A stretch of 64,000 nt of DNA from Candidatus Omnitrophota bacterium (GCA_029261055.1 JAJDCA010000014.1:5295-69294), one strand, 5' to 3'; positions 4,056-55,520 are shown, counted from the first letter of the stretch. A program made the numbers and translations. The notes: a model not told the origin generated them from the letters alone.

Positions 4056-4166
4056 ATTATCTGAACAAGAAAACGTTTTTTCTACAAAATTATGCCAATA
4101 ACCTGCCTTCCTATCGTCAGGCAGCCACGCCACGGATTGGTTGAATTTATCAATATTGGAGGAAAT

Positions 4167-7100
4167 ATGAGCATTTTTATAAAAAAACAACGCTTTTGTC
4201 TATTTTATAGGCTTTTATCTGCATTTATTGCCGTGGCATTCGTAACCACAACAATTATTCCGCGAGGATATGCAAATACAATGATTAATGGTCAGGGGTC
4301 AGTGCTCAGTCTTCCGATTCCCGGTACGATGGTCACGGCAAGTGAGGCGTTTGTGCCTACGCTGATTAAAGGGATTACGATTCATCCGGAGAATCCGTTA
4401 CAGTTCAATTTTATTGTAGATACGGGAAATACGGGCATGCAGCAAGGGAAGGTGCTTGAAGATGAAACGACCAAATTGGTGAAATATTTTTTGGCGGCAC
4501 TTACGGTACCGGAACAAGAGATGTGGGTCAACTTGAGTCCGTACGAAGAGAATCGTATTATTGCCGATGGCTTGGGCGATACTGAGTTAGGACGCGATAT
4601 GCTCGCGCAGGATTATTTGCTCAAACAATTGACTTCTTCTTTGATGTATCCGGAAGACGAATTAGGTGAAAGATTTTGGGATCGCGTGTATGCCCGTGCG
4701 CAAGAAGAATTCGGAACGACGGACATTCCGATGAATACGTTTAACAAGGTGTGGATTGTACCGGAGAAGGCTGTGGTGTTTGAGGACGAGAAGACATCGA
4801 GTACGTATGTGTTGGAGAGTCATTTGAAGGTGATGTTGGAGGAGGACTATGTTACGATGGAACATAATACGGATCGTAGGGGTCTGATTCATCAAACCCA
4901 GGACAAGGGCATGATAAATCATGCCCCTACGGATATCATCCGCGAAATCCTCATTCCCGAAATCGAACGCGAAGTCAACCACGGAAAAACCTTCGCCAAT
5001 CTCCGTCAAATTTACAATTCCATGATTTTAGCGACGTGGTACAAACAAAATCTCAAACAATCCCTTTTAGGGCAAGTTTACATCGACCAAAATAAAACCA
5101 AAGGCATCGACACCGAAGACAAAAAAATTACCCAAAAAATCTACAACCAATACGTCGAATCCTTCCAAAAAGGCGTCTACGACTACATCAAAGAAGATTA
5201 TGATCCCGTCACCCAGCAAATCGTTCCGAGAAAATATTTCTCGGGAGGATTATTAGGACCAGTTACATCAAATCCTGATTTTTCAATGGTTGTTTTAACA
5301 AATACGAAAGATATCGATAGAAGTTTGTTAGGTAAAAATCCGCAGTTTAGTGCTTTGTTTAATTTGGCAGATTTAGGGGGTGAGTCCAAAAGCATATTAG
5401 AAATCACACAAGCGGTCAATAATGCAACAATGATCGATAAGTATATGGTTAAGGAAAAAGTGTTGGATAAAGACGAAGCCATGACAGTGAAAGATGTATC
5501 GATGATGACGAAAAAAAAGGATGGAATAAAAAAAGTAATAAAAAGGGGAGAGATAAGAAACTTTCTTTTTTCCTTATTAGCAATTCCGTTGTTTTTTTCG
5601 ATTTTTATTCCTCCTGTAATTATTGTGCAGATGTTTGTTTCTGTAAATGATATGATGTCTCCTAATCCTTTTTTTCAAATAGAATCAGTGCAAACTAATA
5701 ATAGGCTAGAAGTACAAAATCCGTTTTCAGAAGATCTATTTAAGAAGACTATTAACGATTTGGAAAAATTTTTTCGGAGCGATAAGTCTGCAAATAAAGA
5801 ATTGAAATTCATGAAAATTAGTGAGTTTGTTGCACAATTGAAGTTTGCGCTACGAGATAATGTTAATCTTGATAATTTGAGTTGGGACATGGAGGATATT
5901 AACGAACCTCTTGTAACAGATAAAGATATATTTAACAATATTGCAAAGAGTACATCTAAATGGTTGGAAAATGCTAATGAGGAAACTCAAAAGAGGATAA
6001 TAAATCAACTTTTAGACGTTGAGGATCTTCATTATAGTAGTAAGTATAATTTTTTTAGGTCAATTGGGGGATACCTTAGAAAGCACGATCATGCCATGCT
6101 GGTCGCTCCCGAGATACGGTCAACGGTTAAGTTTCTTACGGAGACGATTGGTGAAGATGTGATGCTCGCGGATGTGCGTTTGCTTGATCAATTGAAAGCA
6201 ATAGAGAATGATGAAGAGTATCAGAATGAAGGCGGTCGTAAGAATTCCACAGGACGTGCGATTCATGACTTTATTGATGATTTAGAAAAAAAATTTGATA
6301 AGAATATGGATGTAATAAAAATGAACGAATTGGGTATTAATGTTGATGATGAAAAAAAGAAACTTGAGAATTGGCGCAATACGTTTCATAAGAAATATTA
6401 TGTTAATCAACGTATTGGATATGCAGGTATTTCGGAAGGAGAAAAGAAAAGTGCTATGAAGGTTATTAATGAAGTAAGTAGATCTTTAATAAAGAAATTC
6501 TTTAACCAATATATTGTTAAAAAGGGTAATAAGCTGATTAACACTAGGTTCTCAGCATCACAAGATCATACAATTCAACCTGAAAAATGGCATTCAGGTG
6601 GGTGGAGTGTAAAAGATAATTTCATTGGTGTTCCTCTCGCCATTGGTTCTTTGATTGCCTTGGAAAGAGAATACAAAAAGGGGGTGTATCGTGACATCAA
6701 TAACACTGGACAGGAGGTTGTCAACTTGGTGTTAGAAGAGTTTTATCAAATCAGACGATCAGAACGTGCTTCTGATTTGAGTAATGTGATTGGTCAAGTT
6801 TTGAATACGTACCGTAGGTATCAAAATTCGACAAATTCGATTGGTCAAGAAATTAAAGAAGATGCTGTTAATGATTTTCGGGATTTAGGAATAGATGAGA
6901 GTGAAATCAGGGAGTTGATCAAATCCAAAGATTCCTTCGGTGCCAAAATGTTGTACATAGCGAAACGTATCCTTTCGGATAATGTAAAAACAGACGAACA
7001 GGCTATTCAACATGCGATTAATGGGCTATCGATACCAGAGCTTGATATTCTTGATGAATTTATTGATGGTGTAGAAACGAAAGTTACAAAAGAAGATCCC

Positions 7101-8639
7101 GTATCTTTAGCAGATGTTTTAAATAAGGTTAGAGAAAAATTGGTTTATAAGTCAATCGTAAGGCCTAGGAAGCGTAATTATAGCATAATCATATCCGAAG
7201 ATTATGATTACGGATCTACTGACACGGATTCAGAGCTCAAAGAACGATTGATACGCCTCAATACAAAAAAAATGATCGCTGACAGGAAAAAAGAGTTAGG
7301 AGATAAGGCTATGGTGGCGGAAATGAAGGATATTGATAAGTTTCAGAAAGTCAGGGGTATTAATCTGGATGCTTCGATGATGGATGATGAAAGTTTGCGT
7401 AAAGAGATTAAGGTTGCTCTTGTGAATATGGATGAGCATATAAAAAAATGGGAAGGTGCGAAAAATGAGTTTCTTGAAACTTTAAATAAAATTTTGTATG
7501 AATATAGGGAGTATTCTGAAATAGAAAATAAGCTTGAGGGAGGTCTTTCAGAAAATGATGAGAAAAAGCAATATGATGTGAAGGATAGCGAAGAAAGTAT
7601 TTCTTTTTCACTAGGAATTAGTGACCAAATTAGGCTGGCGGTTGAAAGATTTTCCAACATAGTTTGGGATAAAGAAATAAAACAATATAATAGGGCAAAA
7701 CTTTGGGAAGGTGATGAGTCTCAAGGTGAGACTAATGAAGAAGAAATTGATAGAGTTCGTCAAGATGTGATAGAAATAACGCATATTGGTATTCAGGAAA
7801 TTATTAATAATATTTTAAAAGACCTGAGTAGTGAAGGTAAAGTTTTGAATTTAATAGAGCATTATTCTATTGTCGAGAAAGTATTAAATAATTTGATAAG
7901 TGAGGAGCCTACATTGAATGATGAGGTAGATTGGATAAATGTGGCATTAAGGGCTATTAATCGATTTAAAGAGATGACACAAAGATTAACGGTTGTTGAT
8001 CAAAATCTTAATATTTCAGGGGAGTCGGTTAACGATTCTGAAAAATATATTAATGAAAATGTGCTGGGACTTAAAAGGGATGCGAATACGTATATTTTGA
8101 AGATGTATTTAAAGTTTATGGGGATTGAAATAACAACCAATGCAGAATTATTTAATGAAGATGTAGATAGTTTTGGAAAGGGGCTTCTTGATTCATTGTT
8201 TAATGCTCTTAACGATAAAGATCATCCTATTAATAATGAAGGTTTTGGTCCATTTGATGATGGTATTGATTTAGAAGATGACGATTCTAATTTAGAAGAT
8301 GATCCTGATGTGGGTGATGATTCAATGATCACGCAAACTGTTAATCATATAAATAACCCTGGAGGTATCAACCTTGACGCGGCGATGTTGGATTTGCAGA
8401 TTAGGCGGGATGGGAATGGGGTGCCGTTGCCGGTTGCGGAGCAGGATTTTTCAACAATGCATATTGAAGGGTTTTTGCCGATTATGATAGATATGGCACC
8501 GGTGAGCATTCCTATGCTGCTCGGTTTCGCGGATGAAGATGGCGGCGTGCCGGTGACCGGTTGTCCTTCGGATGAAGAGGGAATCAATTGCAACCACGAT
8601 TTCATTTTAACCAAGCAGGAAGACGAGATATTTTTGTAA
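4167..8639 (+). CDS. giant secreted / membrane-anchored protein, paralog 1 (1490 aa from the ATG at 4167 with a GGAGG ribosome-binding site)
   Basis: Strong RBS plus an N-terminal hydrophobic signal or anchor. A ~330-aa N-terminal domain is shared with the protein at 13647-17357. An internal 28-aa hydrophobic segment, a long K/E/D-rich low-complexity core and an acidic D/E run follow. The C-terminal ~60-aa motif (GGINLD..LDLQ..HIEGFLP..PV) is shared with the paralog. Confidence 0.8.
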   Translation: MSIFIKKQRFCLFYRLLSAFIAVAFVTTTIIPRGYANTMINGQGSVLSLPIPGTMVTASEAFVPTLIKGITIHPENPLQFNFIVDTGNTGMQQGKVLEDETTKLVKYFLAALTVPEQEMWVNLSPYEENRIIADGLGDTELGRDMLAQDYLLKQLTSSLMYPEDELGERFWDRVYARAQEEFGTTDIPMNTFNKVWIVPEKAVVFEDEKTSSTYVLESHLKVMLEEDYVTMEHNTDRRGLIHQTQDKGMINHAPTDIIREILIPEIEREVNHGKTFANLRQIYNSMILATWYKQNLKQSLLGQVYIDQNKTKGIDTEDKKITQKIYNQYVESFQKGVYDYIKEDYDPVTQQIVPRKYFSGGLLGPVTSNPDFSMVVLTNTKDIDRSLLGKNPQFSALFNLADLGGESKSILEITQAVNNATMIDKYMVKEKVLDKDEAMTVKDVSMMTKKKDGIKKVIKRGEIRNFLFSLLAIPLFFSIFIPPVIIVQMFVSVNDMMSPNPFFQIESVQTNNRLEVQNPFSEDLFKKTINDLEKFFRSDKSANKELKFMKISEFVAQLKFALRDNVNLDNLSWDMEDINEPLVTDKDIFNNIAKSTSKWLENANEETQKRIINQLLDVEDLHYSSKYNFFRSIGGYLRKHDHAMLVAPEIRSTVKFLTETIGEDVMLADVRLLDQLKAIENDEEYQNEGGRKNSTGRAIHDFIDDLEKKFDKNMDVIKMNELGINVDDEKKKLENWRNTFHKKYYVNQRIGYAGISEGEKKSAMKVINEVSRSLIKKFFNQYIVKKGNKLINTRFSASQDHTIQPEKWHSGGWSVKDNFIGVPLAIGSLIALEREYKKGVYRDINNTGQEVVNLVLEEFYQIRRSERASDLSNVIGQVLNTYRRYQNSTNSIGQEIKEDAVNDFRDLGIDESEIRELIKSKDSFGAKMLYIAKRILSDNVKTDEQAIQHAINGLSIPELDILDEFIDGVETKVTKEDPVSLADVLNKVREKLVYKSIVRPRKRNYSIIISEDYDYGSTDTDSELKERLIRLNTKKMIADRKKELGDKAMVAEMKDIDKFQKVRGINLDASMMDDESLRKEIKVALVNMDEHIKKWEGAKNEFLETLNKILYEYREYSEIENKLEGGLSENDEKKQYDVKDSEESISFSLGISDQIRLAVERFSNIVWDKEIKQYNRAKLWEGDESQGETNEEEIDRVRQDVIEITHIGIQEIINNILKDLSSEGKVLNLIEHYSIVEKVLNNLISEEPTLNDEVDWINVALRAINRFKEMTQRLTVVDQNLNISGESVNDSEKYINENVLGLKRDANTYILKMYLKFMGIEITTNAELFNEDVDSFGKGLLDSLFNALNDKDHPINNEGFGPFDDGIDLEDDDSNLEDDPDVGDDSMITQTVNHINNPGGINLDAAMLDLQIRRDGNGVPLPVAEQDFSTMHIEGFLPIMIDMAPVSIPMLLGFADEDGGVPVTGCPSDEEGINCNHDFILTKQEDEIFL

Positions 8640-8692
8640 ATTGACATTTTGGTAATTTTTTGTAGAATGAGCTATACTTAAGTTGAGGTGAC

Positions 8693-8893
8693 ATGATGAA
8701 ATTTAAAAATATGACAGAAATATTTACGGTATATGAAAATCAGTGGGTTGCGCTAACTGATGACGACAAAATTATTGCTTCTGCAGATACTTTAGAATCT
8801 GTTTTAGAAAAGGCCTCTAAAAAAGGATATGATACTCCCCTCACTGCAAAAATCCCCGACTCTAAACACGAGTTTGTTTTATGTCATCTTTAA
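8693..8893 (+). CDS. small 66-aa protein of the kind found paired with retropepsin-like proteases (possibly DUF5678-like, family name from memory only)
   Basis: Its stop overlaps the start of the downstream protease gene. Ribosome-binding site GAGGTG. Confidence 0.45.
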   Translation: MMKFKNMTEIFTVYENQWVALTDDDKIIASADTLESVLEKASKKGYDTPLTAKIPDSKHEFVLCHL

Positions 8894-9357
8894 AAGTTCC
8901 CTATACGCGGGTTTCCACTAATTTCAATCTTTCAATGTTTAAATTTAAGAATCAACCTCTTTTAAAGGTTGGTCTTTTAGGTCAAAATAATCAATGCATT
9001 AGAGCCACGGCGTATATTGACACAGGGGCTCAAGTATGTCTTTTTAATAAAGATTATGCTACTTTTTTGGGTATAAAAAATTACAAAGATACAGAAGAAA
9101 GTATTCCCTTAACTGGTATTGGTGGGAAAAAACCTGAAAATGTGGCCTATTTTCATAGTCTAACGTTGGTTGTTTTTAAAAATCAAAAAAAATTAGAAAT
9201 AAAGAATGCATATAAAATTCAGACAAAAATAGGTTTTTTGGAAAAAGAAATAGGGTTTGCTGGGATATTAGGTGTTTATGGATTTTTGGATCAATTCTCA
9301 TTTTTAGCTAATATCCCGGAACACTATTTTGAATTAACACCGAAGTTTGTAGCTTAG
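8881..9357 (+). CDS. retropepsin-like (clan AA) aspartic protease
   Basis: YIDTGAQ active-site motif (hydrophobic-hydrophobic-D-T-G-A). ~160 aa, typical of single-domain bacterial retropepsins. Confidence 0.65.
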   Translation: MSSLKVPYTRVSTNFNLSMFKFKNQPLLKVGLLGQNNQCIRATAYIDTGAQVCLFNKDYATFLGIKNYKDTEESIPLTGIGGKKPENVAYFHSLTLVVFKNQKKLEIKNAYKIQTKIGFLEKEIGFAGILGVYGFLDQFSFLANIPEHYFELTPKFVA

Positions 9358-9398
9358 ATTAAGACATTTCCATTGTCAATTTATCGATATTTGCTAGA

Positions 9399-10253
9399 AT
9401 GGCACACATGCAGAAGATATCCGTAGCACACATCCAAAATAAAAAAGTTAAGCAAGAGAAAATCACGATGCTGACGGCGTATGATTATCCGATGGGGGTG
9501 TTGTTGGATAAAGCCGGGGTGGATATGGTGTTGGTGGGGGATTCTGTGGCCAATGTGGTTTTGGGGCTTGAATCGACCACAGAGGTGGGGATGTTTGAGA
9601 TGTTGCATCATGCCAAGGCGGTCCGTCGTGGAGTCAAAGAGGCTCTTTTGATAGGGGACATGCCGTATGAATCTTATCAAACAGCTACACAAGATGCCGT
9701 GGCCAATGCCAAACGTTTTGTGGATGAAGCGGGATGTGATGCGGTGAAATTAGAATGGTTTGACCGTTGTATTGAGGTGGCGGCTGATATTGTTCAGGCG
9801 GGCATTCCGGTGATGGGGCATGTGGGGTTAACACCTCAGACAGCTGAGCAATTAGGGGGGTTTAAAGTTCAGGGGAAGGATGCGGATTCTGCGAAGATTA
9901 TTATCGGGAATGCAAAGGCGTTGGAGGAAGCAGGGTGTTTTAGTATTGTTTTGGAGTGTGTTCCGGATAAAATTGCGCAATTAATTACAAAGCAATTATC
10001 CATTCCAACGATCGGGATTGGGGCTGGCCTTTATTGTGACGGACAGGTTCTGGTGACACACGATCTTTTAGGTTTGTTTGATCGTTTTCGTCCAAAATTT
10101 TCTAAACAGTATGTGGATTTAGGGGCCGCGGTTGTTGACGGTGTAAAGAATTTTTGTCAAGAGGTCCGTCAGGGTAAATTCCCCGATGAAGTGCATAGTT
10201 ATTCGATCAAACAAGAGGAATTATCTAAGATAAACGGAGGTGATCTTGTATGA
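9399..10253 (+). CDS. panB: 3-methyl-2-oxobutanoate hydroxymethyltransferase
   Basis: [18 protein letters not shown] and GHVGLTPQ motifs, all characteristic of PanB. Confidence 0.85.
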
Positions 10254-10588
10254 AAAAATGTCCTTTTTGTGCGGAAGAAATTCAAGATCAAGCTATTAAA
10301 TGTCGGTTTTGTGGTGAATTTTTGAATAAAGATAAAGAAGCACCTGTACATGAAAAACCAAAATGGTTTTTTAAGACATCCAGTTTGGTTGTTGGTTTTT
10401 TATTTGTGGGGCCTTTTATTTTACCCGTGATTTGGTTTAACCCGCGGTTTTCAACGATGAAAAAAATTATTTTTAGTCTCATTGTTTTTATTGTTTCTAT
10501 AATTCTTTTAAAAATACTGATGATGAGTTTCGAATCGATCAATGAATACTATGAAATTTTTCAGGATATGAATCAAGCAAGGAGTTAG
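10250..10588 (+). CDS. zinc-ribbon (CPFC..CRFC) membrane protein, hypothetical
   Basis: N-terminal CxxC-x9-CxxC motif followed by two hydrophobic helices. Confidence 0.45.
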
Positions 10589-10593
10589 TACCT

Positions 10594-11451
10594 ATGGAAA
10601 ATATTGTAGAAAATAAAACACAAGATGTGGGGATTGAATGGCAGAAAGTCGATGGGTTTACGGATATCACATATCATAAAGCCGACGGTATTGCAAAAAT
10701 TACAATTAATCGACCTGAGGTACGCAATGCCTTTCGTCCTTTGACGGTGCACGAAATGTCAGAAGCTTTGGCTGATGCGCGCGATGATGAAGATATTGGG
10801 GCGATTATTTTAACAGGTGAAGGTGAGAAAGCTTTTTGTTCTGGAGGGGATCAAAAAATTCGTGGCGAAGCCGGATACAAAGATCATAAATCTGGAAATA
10901 AAAATCGATTAAATGTGTTGGATTTTCAGCGACAGATGCGTACGTGTCCGAAACCAATTATTGCGATGGTGGCTGGGTATGCTGTGGGTGGCGGTCACGT
11001 TTTGCATTTATTGTGTGATATCACAATTGCTGCCGACAATGCGATCTTTGGACAAACTGGCCCGAAGGTGGGGTCATTTGACGGTGGTTACGGCGCGAGT
11101 TACATGGCACGGATTGTTGGACAAAAGAAGGCGCGAGAAATTTGGTTTTTGTGTCGTCAGTACAGTGCCCAAGAAGCGTTAGATATGGGATTGGTGAACA
11201 AAGTTGTTCCTTATGCCGATTTAGAAAAAGAAACGGTTCAATGGTGCCGTGAAATTTTAGTTAATTCTCCGATGGCCATACGCTGCCTTAAAGCTGCACT
11301 TAATGCTGACTGCGACGGCCAAGCCGGTCTGCAAGAACTCGCGGGTAATGCCACGATGTTATTTTACATGACCGAAGAAGGCCAGGAAGGCCGCAATGCC
11401 TTTGTCGAAAAACGTAAACCGGATTTTAAAAAATTTCCACGAAGACCTTAA
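10594..11451 (+). CDS. menB: 1,4-dihydroxy-2-naphthoyl-CoA synthase (crotonase fold)
   Basis: Enoyl-CoA hydratase fold with FCSGGDQ and [11 protein letters not shown] motifs. Lies in a men gene neighbourhood. Confidence 0.85.
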
Positions 11452-11533
11452 CAGTCATCAGCTATCAGTCCTCAGCCTTCAGTATACTTTATTATTTACT
11501 GATGTCTGAAGTCTGATAGCTGACGGCTAAATA
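11452..11533. terminator. imperfect ~30-bp inverted repeat (long hairpin) downstream of menB
   Basis: GTCATCAGCTATCAGTCCTCAGCCTTCAGTA ... TACTGATGTCTGAAGTCTGATAGCTGAC. Confidence 0.35.
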
Positions 11534-11535
11534 TT

Positions 11536-12417
11536 ATGATTTCATCACTCAAACTTTGGTTTATGGCCATTCGGCCAAAAACATTAACCGCCGCCGTGGC
11601 GCCGGTGTTGATCGGCACGGCGATGGCTTTCGGCGATGGCATTCATCATTTGCCAACCGCTTTTCTTTGTCTTTTCGGCGCTATTCTTATTCAAATCGGT
11701 ACGAATTTGGCCAATGATTATTTCGATTTCAAAAAAGGGACGGACGACGTAGATCGTATCGGGCCGACGCGGGTTACGCAGGCAGGGCTGATTTCACCCG
11801 AAGTGGTGAAATTTGCCTTTATTTTGACATTTGTTCTATCGGCATTGGTGTGTATTGCATTGGTTATCCGTGGTGGTTGGCCGATTGCGGTGATCGGTAT
11901 TCTTTCGATTATTTCCGGCATTCTTTACACGGCAGGGCCGAAACCTTTAGGGTATATGGGGCTGGGAGATGTTTTTGTTTTTGTTTTCTTTGGTCCTGTG
12001 GCAGTCGCTGGAACGTATTATGTGCAATCCTTTGAAATGAATATGGCCGTCATCCTTGCCGGTGTGGCGCCGGGTTTAATTTCCGCCGGAATTTTAACCG
12101 TCAATAATTTGCGAGATATTGTTGGAGATAAAAAATCTGGTAAAAAAACGCTGGCTGTTCGTTTTGGTCGTTCGTTTGCACAGAGTGAATATTTGTTTTC
12201 GATGATTGCCGCCTCGCTGGTGCCGGTATTGATTTATGCTCTCATTCAGGATCATTTACCCATTTTAATGGGTACAGTCGTGAGTCTTTTGGCTATTCCT
12301 ATTATGAAAAAGGTTTTGGTTTCTACGGATGGCCCTGCGCTTAACCTTGCCTTAGCGAAAACCGGAAAATTATTATTAATTTACAGTGTGCTTTTTTCGA
12401 TAGGTTGGATTTTATGA
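11536..12417 (+). CDS. menA: 1,4-dihydroxy-2-naphthoate polyprenyltransferase (UbiA family)
   Basis: Multi-pass membrane protein with the NDYFD Asp-rich prenyltransferase motif. Confidence 0.8.
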   Translation: MISSLKLWFMAIRPKTLTAAVAPVLIGTAMAFGDGIHHLPTAFLCLFGAILIQIGTNLANDYFDFKKGTDDVDRIGPTRVTQAGLISPEVVKFAFILTFVLSALVCIALVIRGGWPIAVIGILSIISGILYTAGPKPLGYMGLGDVFVFVFFGPVAVAGTYYVQSFEMNMAVILAGVAPGLISAGILTVNNLRDIVGDKKSGKKTLAVRFGRSFAQSEYLFSMIAASLVPVLIYALIQDHLPILMGTVVSLLAIPIMKKVLVSTDGPALNLALAKTGKLLLIYSVLFSIGWIL

Positions 12418-13490
12418 AAATCATTTCTTTTCAAACCTACAGATACGTTTTGCCTTTTGTGAATCCGATATCTGTGCGAGGTGTTAAGCTTTCGCAGAGG
12501 GAGGGGCTGATTATTCATTGCACGTCAGAACAAGGTATTGAAGGTTTTGGCGAGGCGGCCCCCTTACCGGGATTAAGTGAAGAAAGTTTAGAAGATGTTA
12601 TTGAAGAAGTCGAAATGTTTGAAAGTGTTTTGTTAGATCAGGATGTTCCAAAAAATATTGAAAAGTTTGAAGGCGCTTTGACAGAATGGCTTTCCGCATA
12701 TTCGCTTAGTCCATCGTTACAGTTTGCTATCGAAACGGCCATGTTAAATTTGATGGCGAATAGTCGTAAGATTCTTTTAAGTCAGCTATTCGAAGAATCC
12801 CCAGTAGAGAACATTAGTGTTAATGGTTTATTACAAGGGACAATGGATGAGGTTGTTTTACAAGCGAAGGCATGTTTGTTAAATGGATTTACCGCCATGA
12901 AATTAAAGGTTGGTCGAAAAGATATGGATGAAGATATTCGTAATGTTCAGGCGGTATCAGAAATTATTAGAGATAAAGCTTTGTTACATTTGGATGCGAA
13001 TCAGGCTTGGACATTAAAGGAAGCCGTTAAGTTTGGGCAAGCTATCGGTTGCGCGTGTGTGGATTATATTGAAGAGCCATTACAAGATGTGGCAGGGATA
13101 CCAGAATTTTTTCATCAGACATTAATCCCTGCGGCTTTGGATGAATCATTACAGAATTTAGATATTAAAGATGTTGGTTCGATCGAAGGGGCTGATGTTG
13201 TAGTTGTTAAACCTACTATTTTGGGCGGCATTGAAAAAACTTACCATCTTATCAAATATGCCAGAGAACGTGCTTTACGGTGTGTTGTCAGTTCCTCATT
13301 TGAATCTTCCATTGGAGTTACTACTTTAGCGCATTTGGCCGCAAGCCTCACACCTCGCACCGCAGCTGGATTAGATACCTTAAAATTCTTTCAAAAAGAT
13401 GTCTTGAAAAAAGGTGTTTTTATTCAAAAAGGTAAGATTCCTCTTTCTCAATGCCGGGTCCGGAAAGAAAATGTCCAAATCAATGTTTAA
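12405..13490 (+). CDS. menC: o-succinylbenzoate synthase (enolase superfamily)
   Basis: MKLKVG...LDANQAW...IEEP catalytic Lys/Asp/Glu pattern of the MR/MLE family. Sits in men context. Confidence 0.75.
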   Translation: MDFMKIISFQTYRYVLPFVNPISVRGVKLSQREGLIIHCTSEQGIEGFGEAAPLPGLSEESLEDVIEEVEMFESVLLDQDVPKNIEKFEGALTEWLSAYSLSPSLQFAIETAMLNLMANSRKILLSQLFEESPVENISVNGLLQGTMDEVVLQAKACLLNGFTAMKLKVGRKDMDEDIRNVQAVSEIIRDKALLHLDANQAWTLKEAVKFGQAIGCACVDYIEEPLQDVAGIPEFFHQTLIPAALDESLQNLDIKDVGSIEGADVVVVKPTILGGIEKTYHLIKYARERALRCVVSSSFESSIGVTTLAHLAASLTPRTAAGLDTLKFFQKDVLKKGVFIQKGKIPLSQCRVRKENVQINV

Positions 13491-13628
13491 ATATAAAATA
13501 TTTATTTATGAAGATATTCTTGCCGTTGTGCGCTGAATACGTTTTCTCTTACCATTTTTTCAGCGTCATGAATTAATCTTACCAAGTCTTATTCTAATAA
13601 AAATATATTTTTGGCAGGGTAGTAAGGA

Positions 13629-13644
13629 ATATGTTATCTTTTCC
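13629..13644 (+). promoter_or_regulatory. conserved 16-mer AATATGTTATCTTTTC (extended -10-like), identical to 4040-4055
   Basis: Exact repeat seen upstream of both giant paralogs. Here it abuts the annotated ATG (13647), so the true start is probably downstream (ATG 13659). Confidence 0.5.
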
Positions 13645-13646
13645 AT

Positions 13647-16600
13647 ATGAAGTCGATTATGCGGAGTATTTTTTATTTTATTATTTATGTAATACTGTTA
13701 ACTTTTGGGATGACGACATGTTTTCCTTCAGGGGTAAGCTGTGCTCAGGATGTTTCAAGTTATCCTGTTGAATTAGGCTTGCCGCCTATTGGGCAAAGTC
13801 TTTCTTTAAGTCCTCTCTATGTGCCGCCATTGTTCAAAGGGTTAATGGTTTATCCTCAAGAGCCTTTTCGTTTTGATTTTATTATGGACACTGGGCATGC
13901 AGGTTTATTGCCTGATGAAAAAGCTACAGAAGGGGAAAAGTTGATGCGTTATTTTCTTGCAGCTTTGACTATTCCTGAGGATGAACTGTGGGTCAACCTT
14001 TCGCCGTACGAGGCAGATCGGATTATTCCTGATGCATTGGGTGTGACAGAAATGGGGCGGGATATGCTGGCGCAGGATTATTTACTCAAACAGTTGACGG
14101 CATCATTGATGAATCCTGAAGAAGAGTTAGGGGGAGAATTTTGGGATAGGGTGCACACACAGGCTTATGCACAGTACGGGGTGACGAATATTGACATGAA
14201 CATGTTTCATAAAATTTGGATTGTGCCGGAGAAGGCATTAGTTTATGAAAATACAGGGCAGGTATTTATTTTGGAGTCAAAGTTGAATGTTATGTTGGAG
14301 GAGGATTACAAGGCATTGAACAACAATAATCCCAATGCCGAGTCCCGAGCAACCCTTGGTGAAAATCAGTTGCGAGGGATCTCTACTAAAATTATCCGTG
14401 AAATTCTCATTCCCGCAATCAAACAAGAAATCAACCACGGCCAAACCTTCGCCCCTTTACGCCAAATTTATCATTCCATGATTCTCGCCACGTGGTACAA
14501 GCAGGCATTACAAGAAAGCCTGATTAATCAATCCTATTCCAATCAAAAAAAGACATTGGGTGTGGATATTGAAGATAAAGACGTTAAAGATAAAATTTAT
14601 CAGCAATACATTGCAGCCTTCAAGCAAGGAGTGTCTGACATTATCAGAGAAGATTATGATCCAGTCACCCAGGAAATTATTCCGCGAAAATATTTCTCTG
14701 GTGGGTTGATCGGAAAAGTTAAATTTATCGCAACCAACGATGCCTCCCAACTCACTACTGCCCAAGCCGTAGGCGACTGGGCACTTTTAGCAGGAGATGT
14801 ACAGCTTCGTAATTATTTAGAAATAGATTTAGGTGTGTCGGTGAATAAAATTAATACAGATGAGTATGTAAAAATACTTAATGATAAAGTATTTCAGAAT
14901 GTAGCAGCATTACTTGAGCAGAATAAATTTAGTCAAGCAAAGAAATTACTGTCTGTAGTCAGGAAAGGTTATGAAGAAATTAAACAGGTTAATCAAAATG
15001 CTGCGGTGGGAAGTCTTAATTATAAACGAGCAAAGATTGTTGAGTTGAATAGTAAGCATGTTGAGAATTTGATTCATGATATTGTTAGAGATGAATCGAA
15101 TATTGGTTTTTTATCTATTGATTATGAAGTTCGTAATCTTTTAAAAGTTTTTTTTGAGGAATATAATATTACAGAAGATGGGTTTAGGTTTTTTTTAGAT
15201 CATGTTTTACATGGAATGAGTATAGGCGATCTTAAAGAACGAATAGAAAAATTCTTTTTATGGGGGAATGCGAAAGTAACGGATGAAAAATTATCAAAAG
15301 AACTTGCCCAAAAGATATGGAATTTAGATTTTGAAGGGGGCGTAGGCCTAGAAACGTTTCCTGAGCGATCACGATTTGGTGAGAAAATTATTTTAAATCT
15401 TATTCAAAAATTGATGGATATTAATAAGCAGGAGTTAAATGTTGGAATTATTGGGGGGGGATGGTTTCCTGATAATGGGATGCCTTTTTCTAATGGACCA
15501 ATTATTACAGGAAAAATGGCTTACCGAATTGGGGAAATATGTTCTGCTTGTAGAGTTAGCGGGTTAGATATTTTTTTTCCTGTTGAAAAAGTTGAAGATT
15601 CTATAGGAAATATTCTTTTGGTAGATAAGGACGGATATTATGTTTCTGTGCAGGGGTCGAATATTTTAATAGAACCGTTTCTTGATATGCAAAAACGGTT
15701 GTTAAAAAAGAGAAAAATACTTTTAGCGATGCGGCAAGCTTCAGGAGATAATCCAGAGGTTTATGTGGTTGAAAAAAATGAAGGTTTGATTGAAGCAGGA
15801 GATCGTATAGTAAGAAATCCTCTTGATCGATATGTAGAAAGATTTCATGATGTTAATCGAGGTGGTCAAGGGGTTAAATTGAAGAATTTACATTTTCAGA
15901 GAGCAGGAAAAAATTTTGAGTTGTACAGTGAAAAGAAATTTGATGGGATATATACAGCTAATACGGGTTGGAGAAATTTGCCTGAAACGTATTTGGATGG
16001 TATGCAAAAATGGGGAAAGAAAATTAAAAAGGGAGGTTTTTTAGTAAGTGAAATTAATTTTCCAAAGGGGTTCCCTCTTGTTGTAGGTGAATTCCAAAAA
16101 GGAGAAGATGAGTTGTCTTTAATGAAACTCCATTTTTCTATGTGGGATTATTATTCAATTATTTCATCTGGAAGAATTTTTGATAGTAAAGATGCTTTTG
16201 ATCATATCGTCGAGACGAAATATCGTAATATTCTTATGGAGGTTTGGAAAAAATTGATCAATATTAAAGGTGGGGATTTAACAATAATAGGAGCGGACCT
16301 TACTGAAGAGTTTATTGATAATGTAAAAGTTGAATTAAACGGCTTAGCCGCCGTCCACATTGCCGATGCGGAGGAGGGGCGGGAAGGGCATTTGGTGGTG
16401 ACGATTGATTTTGATAAGTCAATGATGGGGGGGGATAACTCTGGGCGTAAAAAAAATAAACGGACTGTTTTTGTGGAAACATTGGTTAAGAAGTGGATAA
16501 AGAAAAATAAGGGTAAGAGAATAAGAAAAATTCCTATAAGTGGTGCAGCATTAGGAGGGATTGTGATGCTCAGTAAAGAGACTGCGCTTAAAGCTGTTAA

Positions 16601-17357
16601 ATATTCTAGTGATGGAAAAGTTGAAACAACATATAAACCGGCATTGCTTGATGAATATGATTTTTTGGTATTTATGAAAAAAATTTTAAATGAGTCCCCA
16701 GGTGCGTATCAGAGTGTGGAATTCTTAAAGGTTAGGATAAATTTAAAAAATAAATTTGATAATATCATAGATAAAATTCGGAAAGTAGAAGAGGAAAATA
16801 GTAATAAAAAATTAAAAGGAAAGAAAAGAATTGGAGGGCAGCCCGGTTATAACAAAATGGCATTGGATGATTTTGTGGCATATACAAGAAAAAGGAAGAA
16901 ACATCTCGATACATTTCCAATTAAATCAATAGAATTGCAATTTTTATTTGGTTTTCCTAAAAGGGAGAATATTTCAACATATCGCTCTCGATATTTAGGT
17001 GGGCTTATTATAAAGGAGCCTCTGGACAAAAATGACAAGATAAATTTTTTAAAGTTAATTCGTAGATGGGCAAAAAAATATGAAGGGGAAAATGAAATTA
17101 TTAAAGAAATGCCTGGGAAAATTAACGTTATGCTAAAAGATTTTGCGGCTTTGGCTTTACCTCAGCAAGGTGGAGTTGATTTTAATCCGCAATATTTGGA
17201 TTTACAAAGGCAAGGGAATAGGATAGATTCAGCTGTACTGACAGAAGGCCTGACGCAAGGTCAGATTCATTTTGATGGTTTGGAGCCTGTGGTTTTACGC
17301 GTTTTGCCGGTGACGGATATTGTGGGGTTGTTTGAGGCTTCAGGAGTTATGTGGTAA
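13647..17357 (+). CDS. giant secreted protein, paralog 2 (1236 aa)
   Basis: N-terminal signal peptide. The ~330-aa N-terminal domain is ~55-60% identical to paralog 1, with ~80% nucleotide-identity tracts. The core is divergent, and the C-terminal motif (GGVDFN..LDLQ..HFDGLEP..PV) is shared. Confidence 0.8.
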   Translation: MKSIMRSIFYFIIYVILLTFGMTTCFPSGVSCAQDVSSYPVELGLPPIGQSLSLSPLYVPPLFKGLMVYPQEPFRFDFIMDTGHAGLLPDEKATEGEKLMRYFLAALTIPEDELWVNLSPYEADRIIPDALGVTEMGRDMLAQDYLLKQLTASLMNPEEELGGEFWDRVHTQAYAQYGVTNIDMNMFHKIWIVPEKALVYENTGQVFILESKLNVMLEEDYKALNNNNPNAESRATLGENQLRGISTKIIREILIPAIKQEINHGQTFAPLRQIYHSMILATWYKQALQESLINQSYSNQKKTLGVDIEDKDVKDKIYQQYIAAFKQGVSDIIREDYDPVTQEIIPRKYFSGGLIGKVKFIATNDASQLTTAQAVGDWALLAGDVQLRNYLEIDLGVSVNKINTDEYVKILNDKVFQNVAALLEQNKFSQAKKLLSVVRKGYEEIKQVNQNAAVGSLNYKRAKIVELNSKHVENLIHDIVRDESNIGFLSIDYEVRNLLKVFFEEYNITEDGFRFFLDHVLHGMSIGDLKERIEKFFLWGNAKVTDEKLSKELAQKIWNLDFEGGVGLETFPERSRFGEKIILNLIQKLMDINKQELNVGIIGGGWFPDNGMPFSNGPIITGKMAYRIGEICSACRVSGLDIFFPVEKVEDSIGNILLVDKDGYYVSVQGSNILIEPFLDMQKRLLKKRKILLAMRQASGDNPEVYVVEKNEGLIEAGDRIVRNPLDRYVERFHDVNRGGQGVKLKNLHFQRAGKNFELYSEKKFDGIYTANTGWRNLPETYLDGMQKWGKKIKKGGFLVSEINFPKGFPLVVGEFQKGEDELSLMKLHFSMWDYYSIISSGRIFDSKDAFDHIVETKYRNILMEVWKKLINIKGGDLTIIGADLTEEFIDNVKVELNGLAAVHIADAEEGREGHLVVTIDFDKSMMGGDNSGRKKNKRTVFVETLVKKWIKKNKGKRIRKIPISGAALGGIVMLSKETALKAVKYSSDGKVETTYKPALLDEYDFLVFMKKILNESPGAYQSVEFLKVRINLKNKFDNIIDKIRKVEEENSNKKLKGKKRIGGQPGYNKMALDDFVAYTRKRKKHLDTFPIKSIELQFLFGFPKRENISTYRSRYLGGLIIKEPLDKNDKINFLKLIRRWAKKYEGENEIIKEMPGKINVMLKDFAALALPQQGGVDFNPQYLDLQRQGNRIDSAVLTEGLTQGQIHFDGLEPVVLRVLPVTDIVGLFEASGVMW

Positions 17358-17440
17358 TAAAAATAGTTGCGATTTAAAAAATATCTGGATGTGACTAAAA
17401 GAGCATGGTATTCTTTGAATAGAGAAAGGGAGGTTATAAA

Positions 17441-17659
17441 ATGTATAAGTCCAGTATTGTGAATGATATTCTTCAAAGAGCTTCTTCATTATCTCTGGAG
17501 GAGCAAAATTTTATTGTGGAGACGCTTAATAAGCGTATTCATGAGTATCGGAGAAATAAAATTGTACGACGGGTGAAGGAGGCTGAAAAGAATTACGGTA
17601 AAGGGAATGTAAGCAAAGGTAAGGTTAGTGATTTAATGAGTGAGTTAGATGATGATTAG
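17441..17659 (+). CDS. putative antitoxin (72 aa)
   Basis: AGGGAGG ribosome-binding site. Overlaps by 11 nt with a RelE/YafQ-like toxin gene. Confidence 0.45.
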   Translation: MYKSSIVNDILQRASSLSLEEQNFIVETLNKRIHEYRRNKIVRRVKEAEKNYGKGNVSKGKVSDLMSELDDD

Positions 17660-17921
17660 TCTAATTTGGGATGCCGCGTTTATTCGGATTCTTAAAAAAT
17701 GGAAGAAAAAACATCCGCATTTAATTAAAACTTTCCAAGAAGTGCTCTCTGAATTTGTTAAAAATCCTTTTCAACCTTCCCTACGAACACACTGTTTGAG
17801 TGGTAAGTTAAAAGACTGTTGGGCTTGTAGTATTACTTACGAATATCGCGTAGTATTTAAATTTATTTCCAAGAATAAAGTGCTGCTTATCGATATTGGA
17901 ACGCATGACGAAGTATACTAA
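17649..17921 (+). CDS. RelE/YafQ-family type II toxin (mRNA interferase)
   Basis: C-terminal HCLSGKLKDCWACSITYEYRVVFKF..LLIDIGTHDEVY matches the YafQ/RelE signature. Confidence 0.65.
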   Translation: MMISLIWDAAFIRILKKWKKKHPHLIKTFQEVLSEFVKNPFQPSLRTHCLSGKLKDCWACSITYEYRVVFKFISKNKVLLIDIGTHDEVY

Positions 17922-19299
17922 TTATCCTCCGCAGGTTTGTTTTAAAATCCAATCAAATAAAATCTTTATTATTTGCGGGCAGCAAATTGTAACATATGCG
18001 CAGTTTTTTGATGCTGTTGGTGGTGTGATTGATTATTTTCAATCAAGCGGAATTAAGTCTAAAGATCGTGTTGGAATTTGCTGCGCTAATAGTGTTGAGT
18101 ACGTGGCAGCATTAATAGCCCTGTGGCGTATTGGCACTGTCGCTTGTCTTTTGAGTCCGCGCTTACCACAGGAGGCGTTGCAGCAGCAATGTAGCAATTT
18201 GAGTTGTCAGAATGTTTTAACGAGCTTTCCTGAAGTGCCCTATTCAGATAAATTAACAGAAACAAATCCAAAATGGTCTTTGCCGGTAGATCAAGAGGCT
18301 ACGATTATGTTTACCTCCGGCAGTAGTGCCTCGCCCAAAGCGGTTTTGCATACGATTGGTAATCATTATTTCAGTGCCAAGGGCGCGAATGTTCATATTC
18401 CGTTAGTCGCTGGGGATCGATGGTTATTAACGCTTCCATTGCATCACGTCGGGGGTTTAAGTATTTTATTTCGTGCACTTTTGGCCGGGGCAACACTGGT
18501 TATTCCCGAGAAAGATGAGCCTATTGAGGCGGCAATACGGCGCTACGGCATTACGCATGTATCGATGGTGCCGACGCAGATTTATCGTTTATTAGGGGAA
18601 AATGAAGAAGGTGATTTAAAAAGTTTGAAGGCGATTCTTGTCGGCGGAGGGCCGATACCGGAAGCCCTTTTACAAAAAGCAATGGAAAAAGGTTTCCCGG
18701 TTCATACGACGTACGGCTTAACAGAAATGGCTTCGCAAGTTGCCACGTCAAACGTGTTGACGTCGGAAACTATTTCAAATGGCGGTAGAGTGTTGGAGGA
18801 TAGAGAAGTAAATGTTTCTGAAGAAGGTGAAATTTTAGTGCGTGGCAAGACGCTTTTTCAAGGTTATGTAGAAGGCGGGCACATTGATTGTTCGTTTGAC
18901 GCAGGCGGTTGGTTCGCAACCGGTGATTTAGGTGAGCTCAACGACGAAGGTTATTTAAAAGTGACTGGACGTAAAGATAATATGTTTATCTCCGGTGGCG
19001 AAAATATTCAGCCGGAAGAAATTGAACGGCATTTGTGTCGGTTAGAAGGCGTTGAGGAGGCTATCGTCATTCCCGTAGAACATGCGGAATTTGGCTTTCG
19101 CCCGGTGGCGTTTATAAAGTACATGAATGGAAAATCAATAACCTCCGAAGAAATCAAAAGAACTCTGCAACAATATCTCCCTAAATTCAAAATTCCCGAT
19201 ACCTTTTACGATTGGCCGGAAGGCATTATTAGTGAGGGGATTAAGCCAAGTCGGCTAGTATTTAAGCATTATCTTGAGCGAACAATTCCACGATCTTAG
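17896..19299 (+). CDS. menE: o-succinylbenzoate-CoA ligase (adenylate-forming enzyme)
   Basis: AMP-binding motifs TSGSSASPK, YGLTE and GDLG, in men context. The start is uncertain (17896 or 17905). Confidence 0.75.
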   Translation: MERMTKYTNYPPQVCFKIQSNKIFIICGQQIVTYAQFFDAVGGVIDYFQSSGIKSKDRVGICCANSVEYVAALIALWRIGTVACLLSPRLPQEALQQQCSNLSCQNVLTSFPEVPYSDKLTETNPKWSLPVDQEATIMFTSGSSASPKAVLHTIGNHYFSAKGANVHIPLVAGDRWLLTLPLHHVGGLSILFRALLAGATLVIPEKDEPIEAAIRRYGITHVSMVPTQIYRLLGENEEGDLKSLKAILVGGGPIPEALLQKAMEKGFPVHTTYGLTEMASQVATSNVLTSETISNGGRVLEDREVNVSEEGEILVRGKTLFQGYVEGGHIDCSFDAGGWFATGDLGELNDEGYLKVTGRKDNMFISGGENIQPEEIERHLCRLEGVEEAIVIPVEHAEFGFRPVAFIKYMNGKSITSEEIKRTLQQYLPKFKIPDTFYDWPEGIISEGIKPSRLVFKHYLERTIPRS

Positions 19300-26797: not shown

Positions 26798-26995
26798 GCG
26801 CCCAGCAATTAGGAGCATTATTTTTGCTTGGTCTCTTGAATGAAGTTTGATATACTTGCCTCATTAATTTTTATCACCATAAATTTCATCCCCTCATAAT
26901 AATTTCCCCAGAAAGGAGTAAAGATAAACACGTATCGTGTATGTAGAAAATTGTCAGGAAAATTAAATAACGATATATTCAAGGGGGGATCCAAA

Positions 26996-27820: not shown

Positions 27821-27836
27821 ACGAAAGGATAAAACA

Positions 27837-55338: not shown

Positions 55339-55520
55339 GAATGATAAAGCCTCATTCGCTATTTACGAGGAACCCTGCGGAACCCCACGGATGAGGACTT
55401 ACTTATCTAGATCGACCGGGAATCCCCAGTCCTTTTTATATCTAATGTAAGTATATGCTATAGGTTGACATTTATCAACTAGAAAGCTATACCTTTTGTG
55501 TGGGTAAAAATCGAGCTAAA

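Follow-up and report, generated by a model that had tools for sequence, protein, structure and literature searches.

Two Omnitrophota proteins with conserved ends and unrelated cargo, members of a very large and previously unnamed family

A 64,000-nucleotide stretch of DNA from a Candidatus Omnitrophota bacterium (GCA_029261055.1), here called the window, carries two long genes, A and B, whose products resemble each other at both ends and differ completely in the middle. The locus raises the question of what kind of proteins these are and what their conserved ends do.

Genes A and B and their family

Both open reading frames were recovered in the ORF list where the first-pass annotation had placed them; "giant", as it called them, is an overstatement for 1,490 and 1,236 aa. 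Their parts are as follows.

4167-8639, plus strand: gene A, 1,490 aa, from the ORF list; the N-termini of the family align from the Met at 4167
4167-4274, plus strand: Sec-type signal peptide of A (MSIFIKKQRF...TTTIIPRGYA↓NT, the arrow marking the cleavage site), with basic n-region, hydrophobic core and small-x-small site
4275-5252, plus strand: N-module of A (LSLPIPG ... WVNLSPYE ... WIVPEKA ... PRKYFSGGL), from BLASTP against B, family alignment and family search
5253-8354, plus strand: cargo of A; in a search of 5.8 billion proteins it matched only its own entry, with no Pfam, NCBIfam or PDB match
5553-5645, plus strand: hydrophobic segment of A, 31 aa (IRNFLFSLLAIPLFFSIFIPPVIIVQMFVSV), about 100 aa past the N-module, from a hydropathy scan
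8355-8540, plus strand: C-tag of A (NPGGINLDAAMLDLQIRRDGNGVPLPVAEQDFSTMHIEGFLPIMIDMAPVSIPMLLGF), aa 1422-1483 of the 1,515-aa form; family HMM 69.5 bits, E 2e-23
13647-17357, plus strand: gene B, 1,236 aa, from the ORF list
13647-13745, plus strand: Sec-type signal peptide of B (MKSIMRSIFYFIIYVILLTFGMTTCFPSGVSCA↓QD), from family alignment and signal-peptide comparison
13746-14708, plus strand: N-module of B, with PRKYFSGGL at its end, from BLASTP against A, family alignment, family search and AlphaFold models
14709-17162, plus strand: cargo of B; in a search of 5.8 billion proteins it matched only its own entry, with no Pfam, NCBIfam or PDB match
17163-17339, plus strand: C-tag of B (QQGGVDFNPQYLDLQRQGNRIDSAVLTEGLTQGQIHFDGLEPVVLRVLPVTDIVGLFEA), aa 1173-1231; family HMM 45.3 bits, E 7e-16

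A GGAGG lies 6 nt 5' of the ATG of gene A at 4167 and supports this start. The database model of this gene (P0078) starts at an upstream ATG at 4092, 25 codons earlier, giving the 1,515-aa form, while the model of gene B (P0001) starts at Met22 and misses most of the signal peptide. Gene B is flanked by menC and menE. The neighbours of both genes are housekeeping genes, and their downstream genes are unrelated. Only two copies of the N-module were detected in the window by tblastn. The organism is diderm, as an Mla system is encoded within the window.

The N-terminal 360-400 aa or so of A and B were aligned by BLASTP with 50-53% identity (E 1e-117). The common N-terminal domain of about 330 aa proposed in the first-pass annotation is thus real, and the motifs quoted for it are present in both proteins. 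The N-module of B is 44-59% identical to its best 120 matches. The family alignment of this module has 62 invariant columns; no protease signature and no invariant Cys or His was found in it. Its fold was predicted by AlphaFold as mixed alpha/beta. At the other end, the pairwise similarity of the two C-tags is weak (29% over 51 aa, E 0.003), yet an HMM built from 107 other members, with A and B left out, recovered both with the scores listed above. The related C-terminal motif of about 60 aa noticed at first is therefore a family-wide domain, with the consensus GGIDxNP...G(L/F)xPVIxNIxPV..LLG. Its hydrophobic stretch is proline-rich (PVIINITPVTNLPLLLG) and is followed by an acidic tail, which in A reaches 8636. 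The tail beyond the tag has a median length of 17 aa, and the net charge over the last 25 residues is about -1.4.

The family is very large. At least 7,902 representative clusters at 50% identity match the N-module, and at least 4,054 matches cover the N-module only. More than 570 copies were confirmed in species-representative genomes labelled Omnitrophota or in mislabelled 'Planctomycetales' bins, and the family is almost confined to Candidatus Omnitrophota MAGs. Complete members are composed of a Sec-type signal peptide, an N-module of about 330 aa, a variable cargo, a C-tag of about 60 aa and a short acidic tail, in this order. The cargo ranges from 240 to more than 3,300 aa. Members extend to 4,969 aa or more, and some 12 ORFs of more than 3,680 aa run past the ends of the sampled loci. 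The 1.3 Mb of loci examined contain 110 N-modules and 88 C-tags, always one of each and terminal; all 17 ORFs with a C-tag only were cut by the end of the locus or split from an upstream N-module ORF. Exactly one N-module and one C-tag were present in 166 of 201 sampled proteins, and all 166 complete relatives have one C-tag. No conserved gene neighbour was found beside family members across 79 loci. Neither module matched Pfam, NCBIfam, PDB sequences or PDB folds, and no description of either was found in the literature. A and B are thus two members of a very large, Omnitrophota-specific and previously unnamed family.

Signal peptides and cargo

Signal-peptide-like N-termini were observed in 114 of the 128 intact family members, with the consensus ..PPxx(V/A)YA↓Q(S/T)VLNLP. 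The small-x-small cleavage site directly precedes the L-x-L-P-x-x-G start of the N-module, as in A (...PRGYA↓NT...LSLPIPG) and B (...VSCA↓QD...LGLPPIG). The strict twin-arginine motif of Tat signals (S/T-R-R-x-F-L-K) was present in 0 of 133 family sequences and a loose RRx-hydrophobic form in nine of the 133. Since the members carry a canonical Sec signal peptide, they are likely exported across the inner membrane. To this extent the earlier reading as exported proteins is supported. Sec export is unusual for proteins of 1,000-5,000 aa with cofactor-dependent enzymes, which counts against the explanation preferred below.

Between the modules, A and B are unrelated in pairwise comparison, as had been claimed. 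Comparison with other members showed the same pattern. A and P0159 are 72% identical in the N-module and 66% in the C-terminus, with the cargo at chance (z = 1.1), and of 508 pairs whose N-modules share at least 65% identity, only 39 showed any cargo similarity. In orthologous pairs the cargo diverges far faster than the ends; in one example the identities are 94% for the N-module, 90% for the C-tag and 64% for the cargo. These comparisons show that the termini are inherited together while the cargo changes at several times their rate and is often exchanged completely. The proposal of a modular family with swappable cargo between conserved termini is in agreement with this, as cargos that are unrelated and differ in length sit between closely related N-modules and C-tags. 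The cores were also said to be low-complexity and repetitive, which is not the case: SEG masks about 5% of the A cargo and 3.5% of the B cargo, and there are no internal repeats. A single tandem repeat was found in the DNA (21 nt x 2.3 at 8256-8303). K, E and D together make up 25-28% of the cores and 18-19% of the N-module. Pfam domains are present in 48 of the best 120 matches (about 40%), among them PGM, UGPase, methyltransferase, HATPase, REC, GGDEF, GNAT, PRTase and GDH. They are cytoplasmic-type enzyme or signalling domains, and catalytic motifs are retained in several.

Coupling of the two ends and its possible meaning

Residue covariation between the N-module and the C-tag was analysed by DCA; covariation in general can be inflated by co-inheritance. 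The residues of A and B at the leading pair of positions are given below.

4398-4400, plus strand: Leu78 of A, profile position N69, which covaries with C-tag position 41 (A = L/F)
8472-8474, plus strand: Phe1436 of A, C-tag position 41, next after the invariant Gly; covariation partner of Leu78
13866-13868, plus strand: Phe74 of B, profile position N69, covarying in the same way (B = F/L)
17280-17282, plus strand: Leu1212 of B, C-tag position 41; covariation partner of Phe74

Among about 98,000 pairs, the couplings N69-C41, N135-C8 and N295-C41 took ranks 4, 10 and 18, with scores of 1.89, 1.66 and 1.40; in four pairing shuffles the top score was 1.03-1.17. At N69/C41 the combinations are L/F (95), F/L (57), F/F (23) and L/L (18), a size-compensating L/F versus F/L swap, and both positions changed together at 14 tree nodes versus 5.6 expected. 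Inter-domain pairs are not over-represented among the top couplings overall, which counts against a contact of the two modules. AlphaFold modelling of a 680-aa member gave a pLDDT of 85-96 in the N-module, 58-87 in the C-tag and below 50 in the cargo. Because residues of the two modules covary recurrently and AlphaFold places the tag confidently, N-module and C-tag probably form one unit, packed together. The first-pass annotation gave them separate roles, export or anchoring for the N-module and sorting or cleavage for the C-tag, which is conjecture; covariation and model suggest instead that they act jointly and not as two independent signals.

The best explanation overall, to which we give about an even chance, is a conserved terminal handle that carries interchangeable exported cargo. 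The chain would be exported by Sec, and cleavage of the signal peptide would leave an N-terminal Gln. The N-module would then pack against the C-tag, making the handle a split domain with the cargo inserted in it. The handle may be recognised by unlinked machinery, either a system of the cell for secretion, anchoring or processing, or a structure on the prey. As the handle is what the machinery would recognise in this proposal, it could serve as a common chassis for interchangeable cargo, bringing it to the periplasm, the surface of the cell or the contact between predator and prey. That export or delivery of cargo is the function we infer from the sequences. More speculatively, the D-x-A-M motifs enriched at module boundaries may mark sites of processing or docking, and the family may be an effector set delivered to the host cell by epibiotic predators or parasites, since the cytoplasmic-type cargos need nucleotides and sugar phosphates to make sense. 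Omnitrophota have been proposed as predators or parasites (PMC10066038), and open cytoplasmic contact with transfer of molecules into prey has been reported for V. archaeovorus (PMC13153191). Delivery into prey by this family is pure conjecture. Because 60% of the cargos, A and B included, have no recognisable domain, the effector reading is extrapolated from the remaining ones. Tentatively, N-module and C-tag could be the halves of one unrecognised carrier domain of new fold. The thousands-strong family, possibly a building principle of the long and giant proteins of the phylum, would then be the substrates of an undescribed route that moves active cytoplasmic-type enzymes and signalling proteins into or onto prey, with D-x-A-M as processing points.

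The strict co-occurrence and covariation of N-module and C-tag would also fit a surface coat, in which molecules are joined head to tail, the C-tag of one sitting in the N-module of its neighbour, to form a heteropolymeric envelope layer ('velamen') that displays the cargos. The C-tag segment PVIINITPV is beta-strand-like, paralogues with compatible ends are very numerous, and V. archaeovorus has been described as coated (PMC10066038). We consider such a coat unlikely, since the tag is placed confidently in a monomer model, covariation cannot separate cis from trans, and cytoplasmic-type enzymes with intact catalytic motifs would be an odd decoration.

The distribution of the D-x-A-M motif brings in a second alternative. 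In cargo and linkers no gapped triplet is more strongly enriched than D.AM (201 observed versus 18.5 expected), and non-family proteins of the same genomes show no such excess (19 observed versus 20.2 expected). The motif is concentrated right after the N-module and right before the C-tag, and in P0044 it lies exactly between Pfam domains. The A cargo has several D-x-A/S-M motifs (7-8 sites, with starts at nt 5277, 5472, 5493, 6087, 7302, 7368 and 8316). From this, members could be polyprotein precursors that are exported and cut at D-x-A-M by a dedicated protease or by the N-module, freeing the cargo domains, with N-module and C-tag as intramolecular chaperone or pro-domains. A D-x-A-M site is absent in 69 of 166 members, however, and the B cargo has a single D-x-S-M motif (FDKSMMGG, 16413-16424). 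The N-module also lacks the protease signature and the invariant Cys or His that were looked for. This reading is doubtful, a little more so than the coat.

A hydrophobic segment 70-130 aa past the N-module was found by hydropathy scan in A and in about 8 of the best 120 matches. If the A-type segment spans the membrane once, cargo and C-tag would lie on the side opposite to the N-module. The members might accordingly be enzymes or sensors anchored in the inner membrane by an uncleaved N-terminal anchor or a later helix, with a periplasmic sensor or binding N-module and the cargo in the cytoplasm of the bacterium itself. The cytoplasmic-type cargo domains agree with this, and many long Omnitrophota proteins are read as membrane-anchored in the searched text of the 2026 preprint (10.64898/2026.06.07.730766). 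In most members, however, B among them, no hydrophobic segment lies between N-module and C-tag; the positive charges before the signal sequence and the conserved A↓Q cleavage site predict the whole chain outside; and a cytoplasmic C-tag could not touch a periplasmic N-module, yet the two covary. Such anchoring is improbable.

The layout of signal peptide, conserved terminal modules and variable part is shared with known secretion substrates, and one relative, P0106, has a Por_Secre_tail match, which is internal in that protein. That the family is a divergent form of TpsA, autotransporter, T9SS cargo, RTX/T1SS substrate or polymorphic toxin is nonetheless very improbable on the comparison given below. 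The reading of the first-pass annotation, a recent duplication or gene conversion around repetitive cores, is hardly tenable: DNA windows of 85-87% identity occur only on the most conserved peptide motifs, codon-aligned DNA of A and B is 60% identical overall and 45% at third positions with a longest exact run of 15 nt, the cores are of normal complexity, and the N-module of A shares 75% identity with proteins encoded in other genomes, against 53% with B. The two genes are old paralogues.

Omnitrophota are widespread, uncultured and ultra-small, and the family bears on how they act on hosts and why they have many very long signal-peptide proteins with 'cytoplasmic' enzyme domains. Sequence models of N-module and C-tag pick out thousands of candidate exported proteins. 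The family gives clear evidence for cargo exchange between fixed ends and offers a testable residue contact (N69-C41) and a candidate processing motif (D-x-A-M). If the carrier idea is true, it would provide a new sorting principle and a ready effector catalogue for the whole phylum. If it is false, the family is still among the largest unannotated bacterial domain families and merits database models.

Comparison with known systems

The first-pass annotation did not recognise either module, and both indeed lie outside known families, with T5SS, T9SS and RTX features absent. Substrates of type Vb secretion (TpsA) are similar in that a conserved N-terminal domain (about 250-330 aa) comes directly after the Sec signal peptide, downstream parts are diverse and some members are very long. 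They differ from the present family in its obligatory conserved C-terminal tag, which covaries with the N-module. The TPS domain (beta-helix, NPNL/NPNGI) was not matched, with no Pfam or NCBIfam hit at E <= 1 and an alpha/beta predicted fold. No TpsB (Omp85/POTRA) gene lies beside A or B among their housekeeping neighbours, and none is conserved across the 79 loci. A classical autotransporter (T5aSS) ends in a beta-barrel of 250-300 aa, against a conserved C-terminal part of about 60 aa plus tail here, with no Pfam match.

T9SS cargo proteins share the signal peptide, the highly diverse cargo, a small conserved C-terminal end domain and unlinked machinery. Unlike the family, they have no obligatory conserved N-terminal domain, and the system belongs to Bacteroidota/FCB. 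No Pfam match at E <= 10 was obtained with the tag consensus or with the C-terminus of A or B, which are not Por_Secre_tail (PF18962), CHU_C or TIGR04183. T1SS/RTX substrates were rejected on the presence of a signal peptide and the absence of any RTX (GGxGxD) repeat match or tandem repeats. Sortase and exosortase signals (LPXTG, PEP-CTERM, GlyGly-CTERM) have a signature motif, a TM helix and a basic cluster at the very C-terminus, where the family has a proline-rich stretch and acidic tail, and no NCBIfam match was obtained.

Polymorphic toxins (CDI, Rhs, MAF) resemble the family in their conserved trafficking parts, recombination-exchanged cassettes and many paralogues per genome. In the family, by contrast, the variation lies in the interior between two conserved ends, and the cargos are metabolic, signalling or orphan and not recognised toxins. 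The toxin assignment was rejected on the conserved C-terminus and the lack of a conserved downstream (immunity) gene. Of the ten best Foldseek matches in the PDB for the 680-aa model, five are ClyA-family alpha-pore-forming toxins (MakA/B/E, NheA), which have long helices and a beta-hairpin.

Long and giant Omnitrophota proteins have been classed by length, Pfam content and topology by West-Roberts et al. in 2023 and in a 2026 preprint (10.1101/2023.11.21.568195; 10.64898/2026.06.07.730766). The N-module, the C-tag, their coupling and D-x-A-M are not described in the searched text of either preprint. As far as that text goes, the proteins reported there are like the present family in phylum, in signal peptides and in the set of cargo Pfam domains (methyltransferase, HATPase, GNAT, PGM, REC, HEAT).

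Two old paralogues, A and B, in the window

The window is chromosomal with ~39% G+C and carries housekeeping genes on the + strand. The two proteins studied here, A and B, are encoded by the following entries of the ORF list, and tblastn found no further copy in the window.

4092 or 4167 to 8639, + strand, ORF A (1,490 aa)
13647-17357, + strand, ORF B (1,236 aa)

A is flanked by a GNAT acetyltransferase gene on one side and panB on the other. B lies inside a same-strand row of menaquinone biosynthesis genes (10594-19299) with the order menB-menA-menC, then B, then menE. The window also contains an operon for Mla lipid transport, which shows that the organism is diderm. The most likely true start of A, as judged from the sequence, is 4167, because GGAGG is found 6 nt upstream of this ATG and the signal peptides of the family align from this Met. 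P0078, the database model of A, opens 25 codons 5' of the Shine-Dalgarno-bearing ATG (4092-4166), while P0001, the model of B, opens at Met22 and misses most of the signal peptide (13647-13709). The starts of both public gene models seem wrong, and such errors would conceal signal peptides from automated surveys.

BLASTP confirmed the shared N-terminal region proposed by the first-pass annotation, with 50% identity between A and B over ~400 aa (E 1e-117). Outside this region only a weak C-terminal match was found (29% over 51 aa, E 0.003). The related C-terminal motif is nevertheless real, since an HMM trained on the C-termini of 107 family members other than A and B gives 69.5 bits for A and 45.3 bits for B. 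The cores were earlier described as low-complexity and repetitive, but SEG masks only 3.5-5% of them and they possess no internal repeats; the lone DNA repeat is 21 nt x 2.3, and the K+E+D content is 25-28%. Recent duplication or gene conversion, also suggested earlier, was rejected on the pattern of DNA identity and on closer relatives in other genomes. At the DNA level, 60% of all positions and 45% of third codon positions are identical, the longest shared exact run is 15 nt, and windows of 85-87% identity are confined to the most conserved peptides. The N-module, the ~330-aa domain following the signal peptide, is in A 75% identical to those of P0159 and P0036 from other genomes versus 53% to that of B. 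A and B are two old paralogues.

Other features were also observed in the window. In a type I restriction HsdR-like protein, the domains HSDR_N, SWI2_SNF2/ResIII and T1R_D3 are joined at the C-terminus (aa 1043-1155) by a Peptidase_S24 (LexA-like) domain, an unusual fusion. The gene of a BRO-N domain protein overlaps the ORF that follows it, which encodes an SSB with a ~70-aa N-terminal extension; this pair could be a mobile-element remnant.

26951-28265, BRO-N domain protein and SSB
35129-35205, tRNA-Pro gene
55500-58982, HsdR-like protein with Peptidase_S24 domain

A large family with conserved ends and hypervariable cargo

A search with B retrieved at least 4,054 proteins, all matching just its first ~28%. 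They are 680 to >2,100 aa long and come from Candidatus Omnitrophota where a source is named; the best 120 of them show 44-59% identity. When 1.84 billion representatives were searched exhaustively by HMMER with the N-module of B, 7,902 clusters (50% identity) matched, 6,055 of them at E <= 1e-30; the proteins are up to 4,969 aa long and have the N-module always at the N-terminus. At least 586 matches, at least 570 of them confirmed, were found in species-representative genomes; among the matches listed, all are in Omnitrophota MAGs or 'uncultured Planctomycetales' bins, with several copies per genome.

In 79 loci with family genes (1.3 Mb), an N-module was identified in 110 ORFs and the C-tag, the ~60-aa C-terminal domain, in 88; each module occurs singly, and the two always stand at opposite ends. 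All 17 C-tag-only ORFs begin at a locus edge or directly after an N-module-only ORF, the latter arrangement indicating a split gene. Eight family genes were observed in this split form, which could result from frameshift, stop codon, pseudogenisation, assembly error or recoding.

L031 1939-6611, split gene
L040 9989-12933, split gene
L044 16112-19003, split gene
L050 5751-12994, split gene
L057 10016-13709, split gene
L061 6430-9999, split gene
L036 7937-17214, split gene
L006 225-3550, split gene

Tandem same-strand arrays of 2 or 3 members are common, and the neighbours in them are 46-69% alike, no closer than the family median of 55%. No conserved neighbouring gene was found in the 79 loci; the largest cluster represents generic PAS/histidine kinases in 19 loci.

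The cargo, the sequence between the two modules, was earlier proposed to be swappable, and family pairs with like termini and unlike cargos support this. A and P0159 share 72% identity in the N-module and 66% in the last 92 aa, while the likeness of their cargos of ~970 aa is at the level of shuffled sequences (z = 1.1). N-module and C-tag identities correlate over 13,695 pairs (Spearman 0.37), C-tags being 65% identical in pairs with N-modules >=70% and 33-40% in the rest. Homologous cargos change much faster than the termini, as in P0020/P0056 (N-module 94, C-tag 90, cargo 64%) and P0029/P0055 (65, 67 and 34%). Outright replacement was found in P0032/P0084 (N-module 91%, C-tag 88%; cargos of 479 vs 1,205 aa) and P0039/P0124 (97% and 77%; 1,080 vs 2,299 aa). 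Both fast divergence and cassette replacement therefore occur. Cargo similarity of any kind was detected in only 39 of the 508 pairs with N-modules >=65% identical, and the sample contains a relative for just 31 of 166 cargos.

The cargos of A and B match only the query proteins themselves among 5.8 billion proteins and have no match in Pfam, NCBIfam or PDB, apart from two chance-level PDB ones for A. Pfam domains were found in the cargo of 48 of the best 120 matches to B, and nearly all are cytoplasmic-type enzymes or signalling modules. Among them are phosphoglucomutase (PGM), UDP-glucose pyrophosphorylase, methyltransferases, PRTase, GNAT, dehydrogenases, HATPase, receiver, GGDEF and HEAT/TPR repeats. 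Many of these matches are partial or broken by long insertions. Several cargos keep catalytic motifs (PGM TASHSP and DADSDR, GGDEF, PRPP loop, HATPase G1/G2 boxes), as judged by regex checks whose mixed results are indicative only. Motif-retaining cargos behind a Sec signal peptide were observed in P0044 (aa 996-1511), P0089, P0109, P0049, P0081 and P0007, and SAM motif I is also among the motifs kept in such cargos. The family as a whole is large, unannotated and confined to one phylum, and a fixed two-part frame encloses its hypervariable cargo.

Terminal modules, their putative contact and a recurrent cargo motif

The family N-terminus combines a basic n-region and a hydrophobic core with the consensus ..PPxx(V/A)YA|Q(S/T)VLNLP, and 114 of 128 intact members begin in this signal-peptide-like manner when classed by a simple rule. 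The Tat pathway as a route for folded enzymes was rejected, since a strict twin-arginine motif is absent from every member. The C-tag has the HMM consensus GGIDLNPALLDLQTQGDGNGVPLPLDQQELENINIDGLVPVIINITPVTNLPLLLG, and an acidic tail comes after it. The first-pass annotation recognised neither module; Pfam and NCBIfam likewise gave no relevant match to A and B or to their C-termini. Even at E <= 10 the C-tag has no Pfam match, and the N-module profile matches no PDB sequence. The lead to T9SS from P0106 was dropped because its Por_Secre_tail match is internal to the cargo. About 10-25% of members end in ...(L/V)S-x-L-N after the acidic tail, including P0005, P0011, P0016, P0022, P0027, P0037, P0039, P0041, P0049, P0076 and P0081; A and B do not have this ending. 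In a Foldseek search against PDB with the AlphaFold model of P0034 (mcf9486dbb9be), 5 of the 10 best matches were ClyA-family pore-forming toxins (MakA, MakB, MakE, NheA and VCA0883), all non-significant.

In a mean-field DCA of 231 paired sequences (effective number 207), three inter-module couplings, N69-C41, N135-C8 and N295-C41 (profile positions in N-module and C-tag), ranked among the 18 strongest of ~98,000 pairs. Their scores of 1.89, 1.66 and 1.40 exceed the highest values from four shuffled pairings (1.03-1.17), and the strong N69-N293 coupling makes the cluster self-consistent. Inter-module pairs showed no overall enrichment among the top couplings. The N69/C41 combinations are L/F in 95 sequences, including A, F/L in 57, including B, F/F in 23 and L/L in 18, which looks like a size-compensating hydrophobic pair. 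On a UPGMA tree N69 and C41 change 31 and 35 times, and jointly at 14 nodes against 5.6 expected (permutation P < 2e-4). In the AlphaFold model of a natural 680-aa member, the C-tag has pLDDT 58-87 and the cargo <50. The couplings, the covariation and the predicted confidence fit a putative physical contact between N-module and C-tag, in cis or in trans alike. A head-to-tail coat lattice of family proteins was also considered and is judged unlikely.

Outside both modules, the most over-represented gapped triplet is D-x-A/S-M, in many cases with L or M as the next residue. In family cargo and linkers (P0001-P0201) it was observed 201 times against 18.5 expected (~11-fold), with no enrichment in non-family proteins of the genomes concerned (19 sites, 20.2 expected) or in the remaining ORFs of the window (2 sites, 1.3 expected). 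In 34% of members (5% expected) it occurs in the first 50 aa past the N-module, and in 30% (3.5% expected) in the last 35 aa ahead of the C-tag.

5277, 5472, 5493, 6087, 7302, 7368, 8316 and 8376, + strand, eight D-x-A/S-M sites in A, one within the C-tag
16413, + strand, one D-x-A/S-M site in B

More speculatively, these sites could serve for processing or docking. In P0044 it is situated exactly between N-module, UGPase-like part, PGM part and C-tag, and 69 of 166 members have no site at all; that the family proteins are polyprotein precursors is considered a somewhat more doubtful proposal than the lattice.

Proposed export and comparison with known systems

According to the preferred model, family members would leave by Sec, after which the signal peptide would be cleaved. 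N-module and C-tag would then act as one unit, a common handle for genetically unlinked machinery, with the cargo as an exchangeable payload. More speculatively, the payloads might act at or in prey. Such action would fit the predatory or parasitic lifestyle proposed for Omnitrophota (PMC10066038) and the open cytoplasmic contact and molecule transfer into prey reported for V. archaeovorus (PMC13153191).

A strongly hydrophobic 31-aa segment with a central PP was observed in A (5553-5645), ~100 aa past the N-module. About 8 of the best 120 matches have a similar segment in a like relative position, for example P0068, P0076, P0106, P0032, P0051, P0117 and P0102. The preferred export model leaves the segment of A unaccounted for, and whether it makes a single membrane crossing or a hairpin settles the topology of the cargo. 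Inner-membrane-anchored enzymes acting in the bacterium's own cytoplasm are another, unlikely alternative.

A literature search gave no description of the modules, and the motif strings had no match in 8 million papers. In their searchable text, two preprints on giant Omnitrophota proteins (10.1101/2023.11.21.568195; 10.64898/2026.06.07.730766) report the same cargo domain repertoire and signal peptides, and no description of the N-module or C-tag was found there. In layout the family resembles TpsA proteins, T9SS cargo and polymorphic toxins, but all the tested defining features of these systems are absent from it. In general kind the family was rated as modular exported proteins with conserved trafficking ends, and there is a substantial chance that it represents something categorically new.
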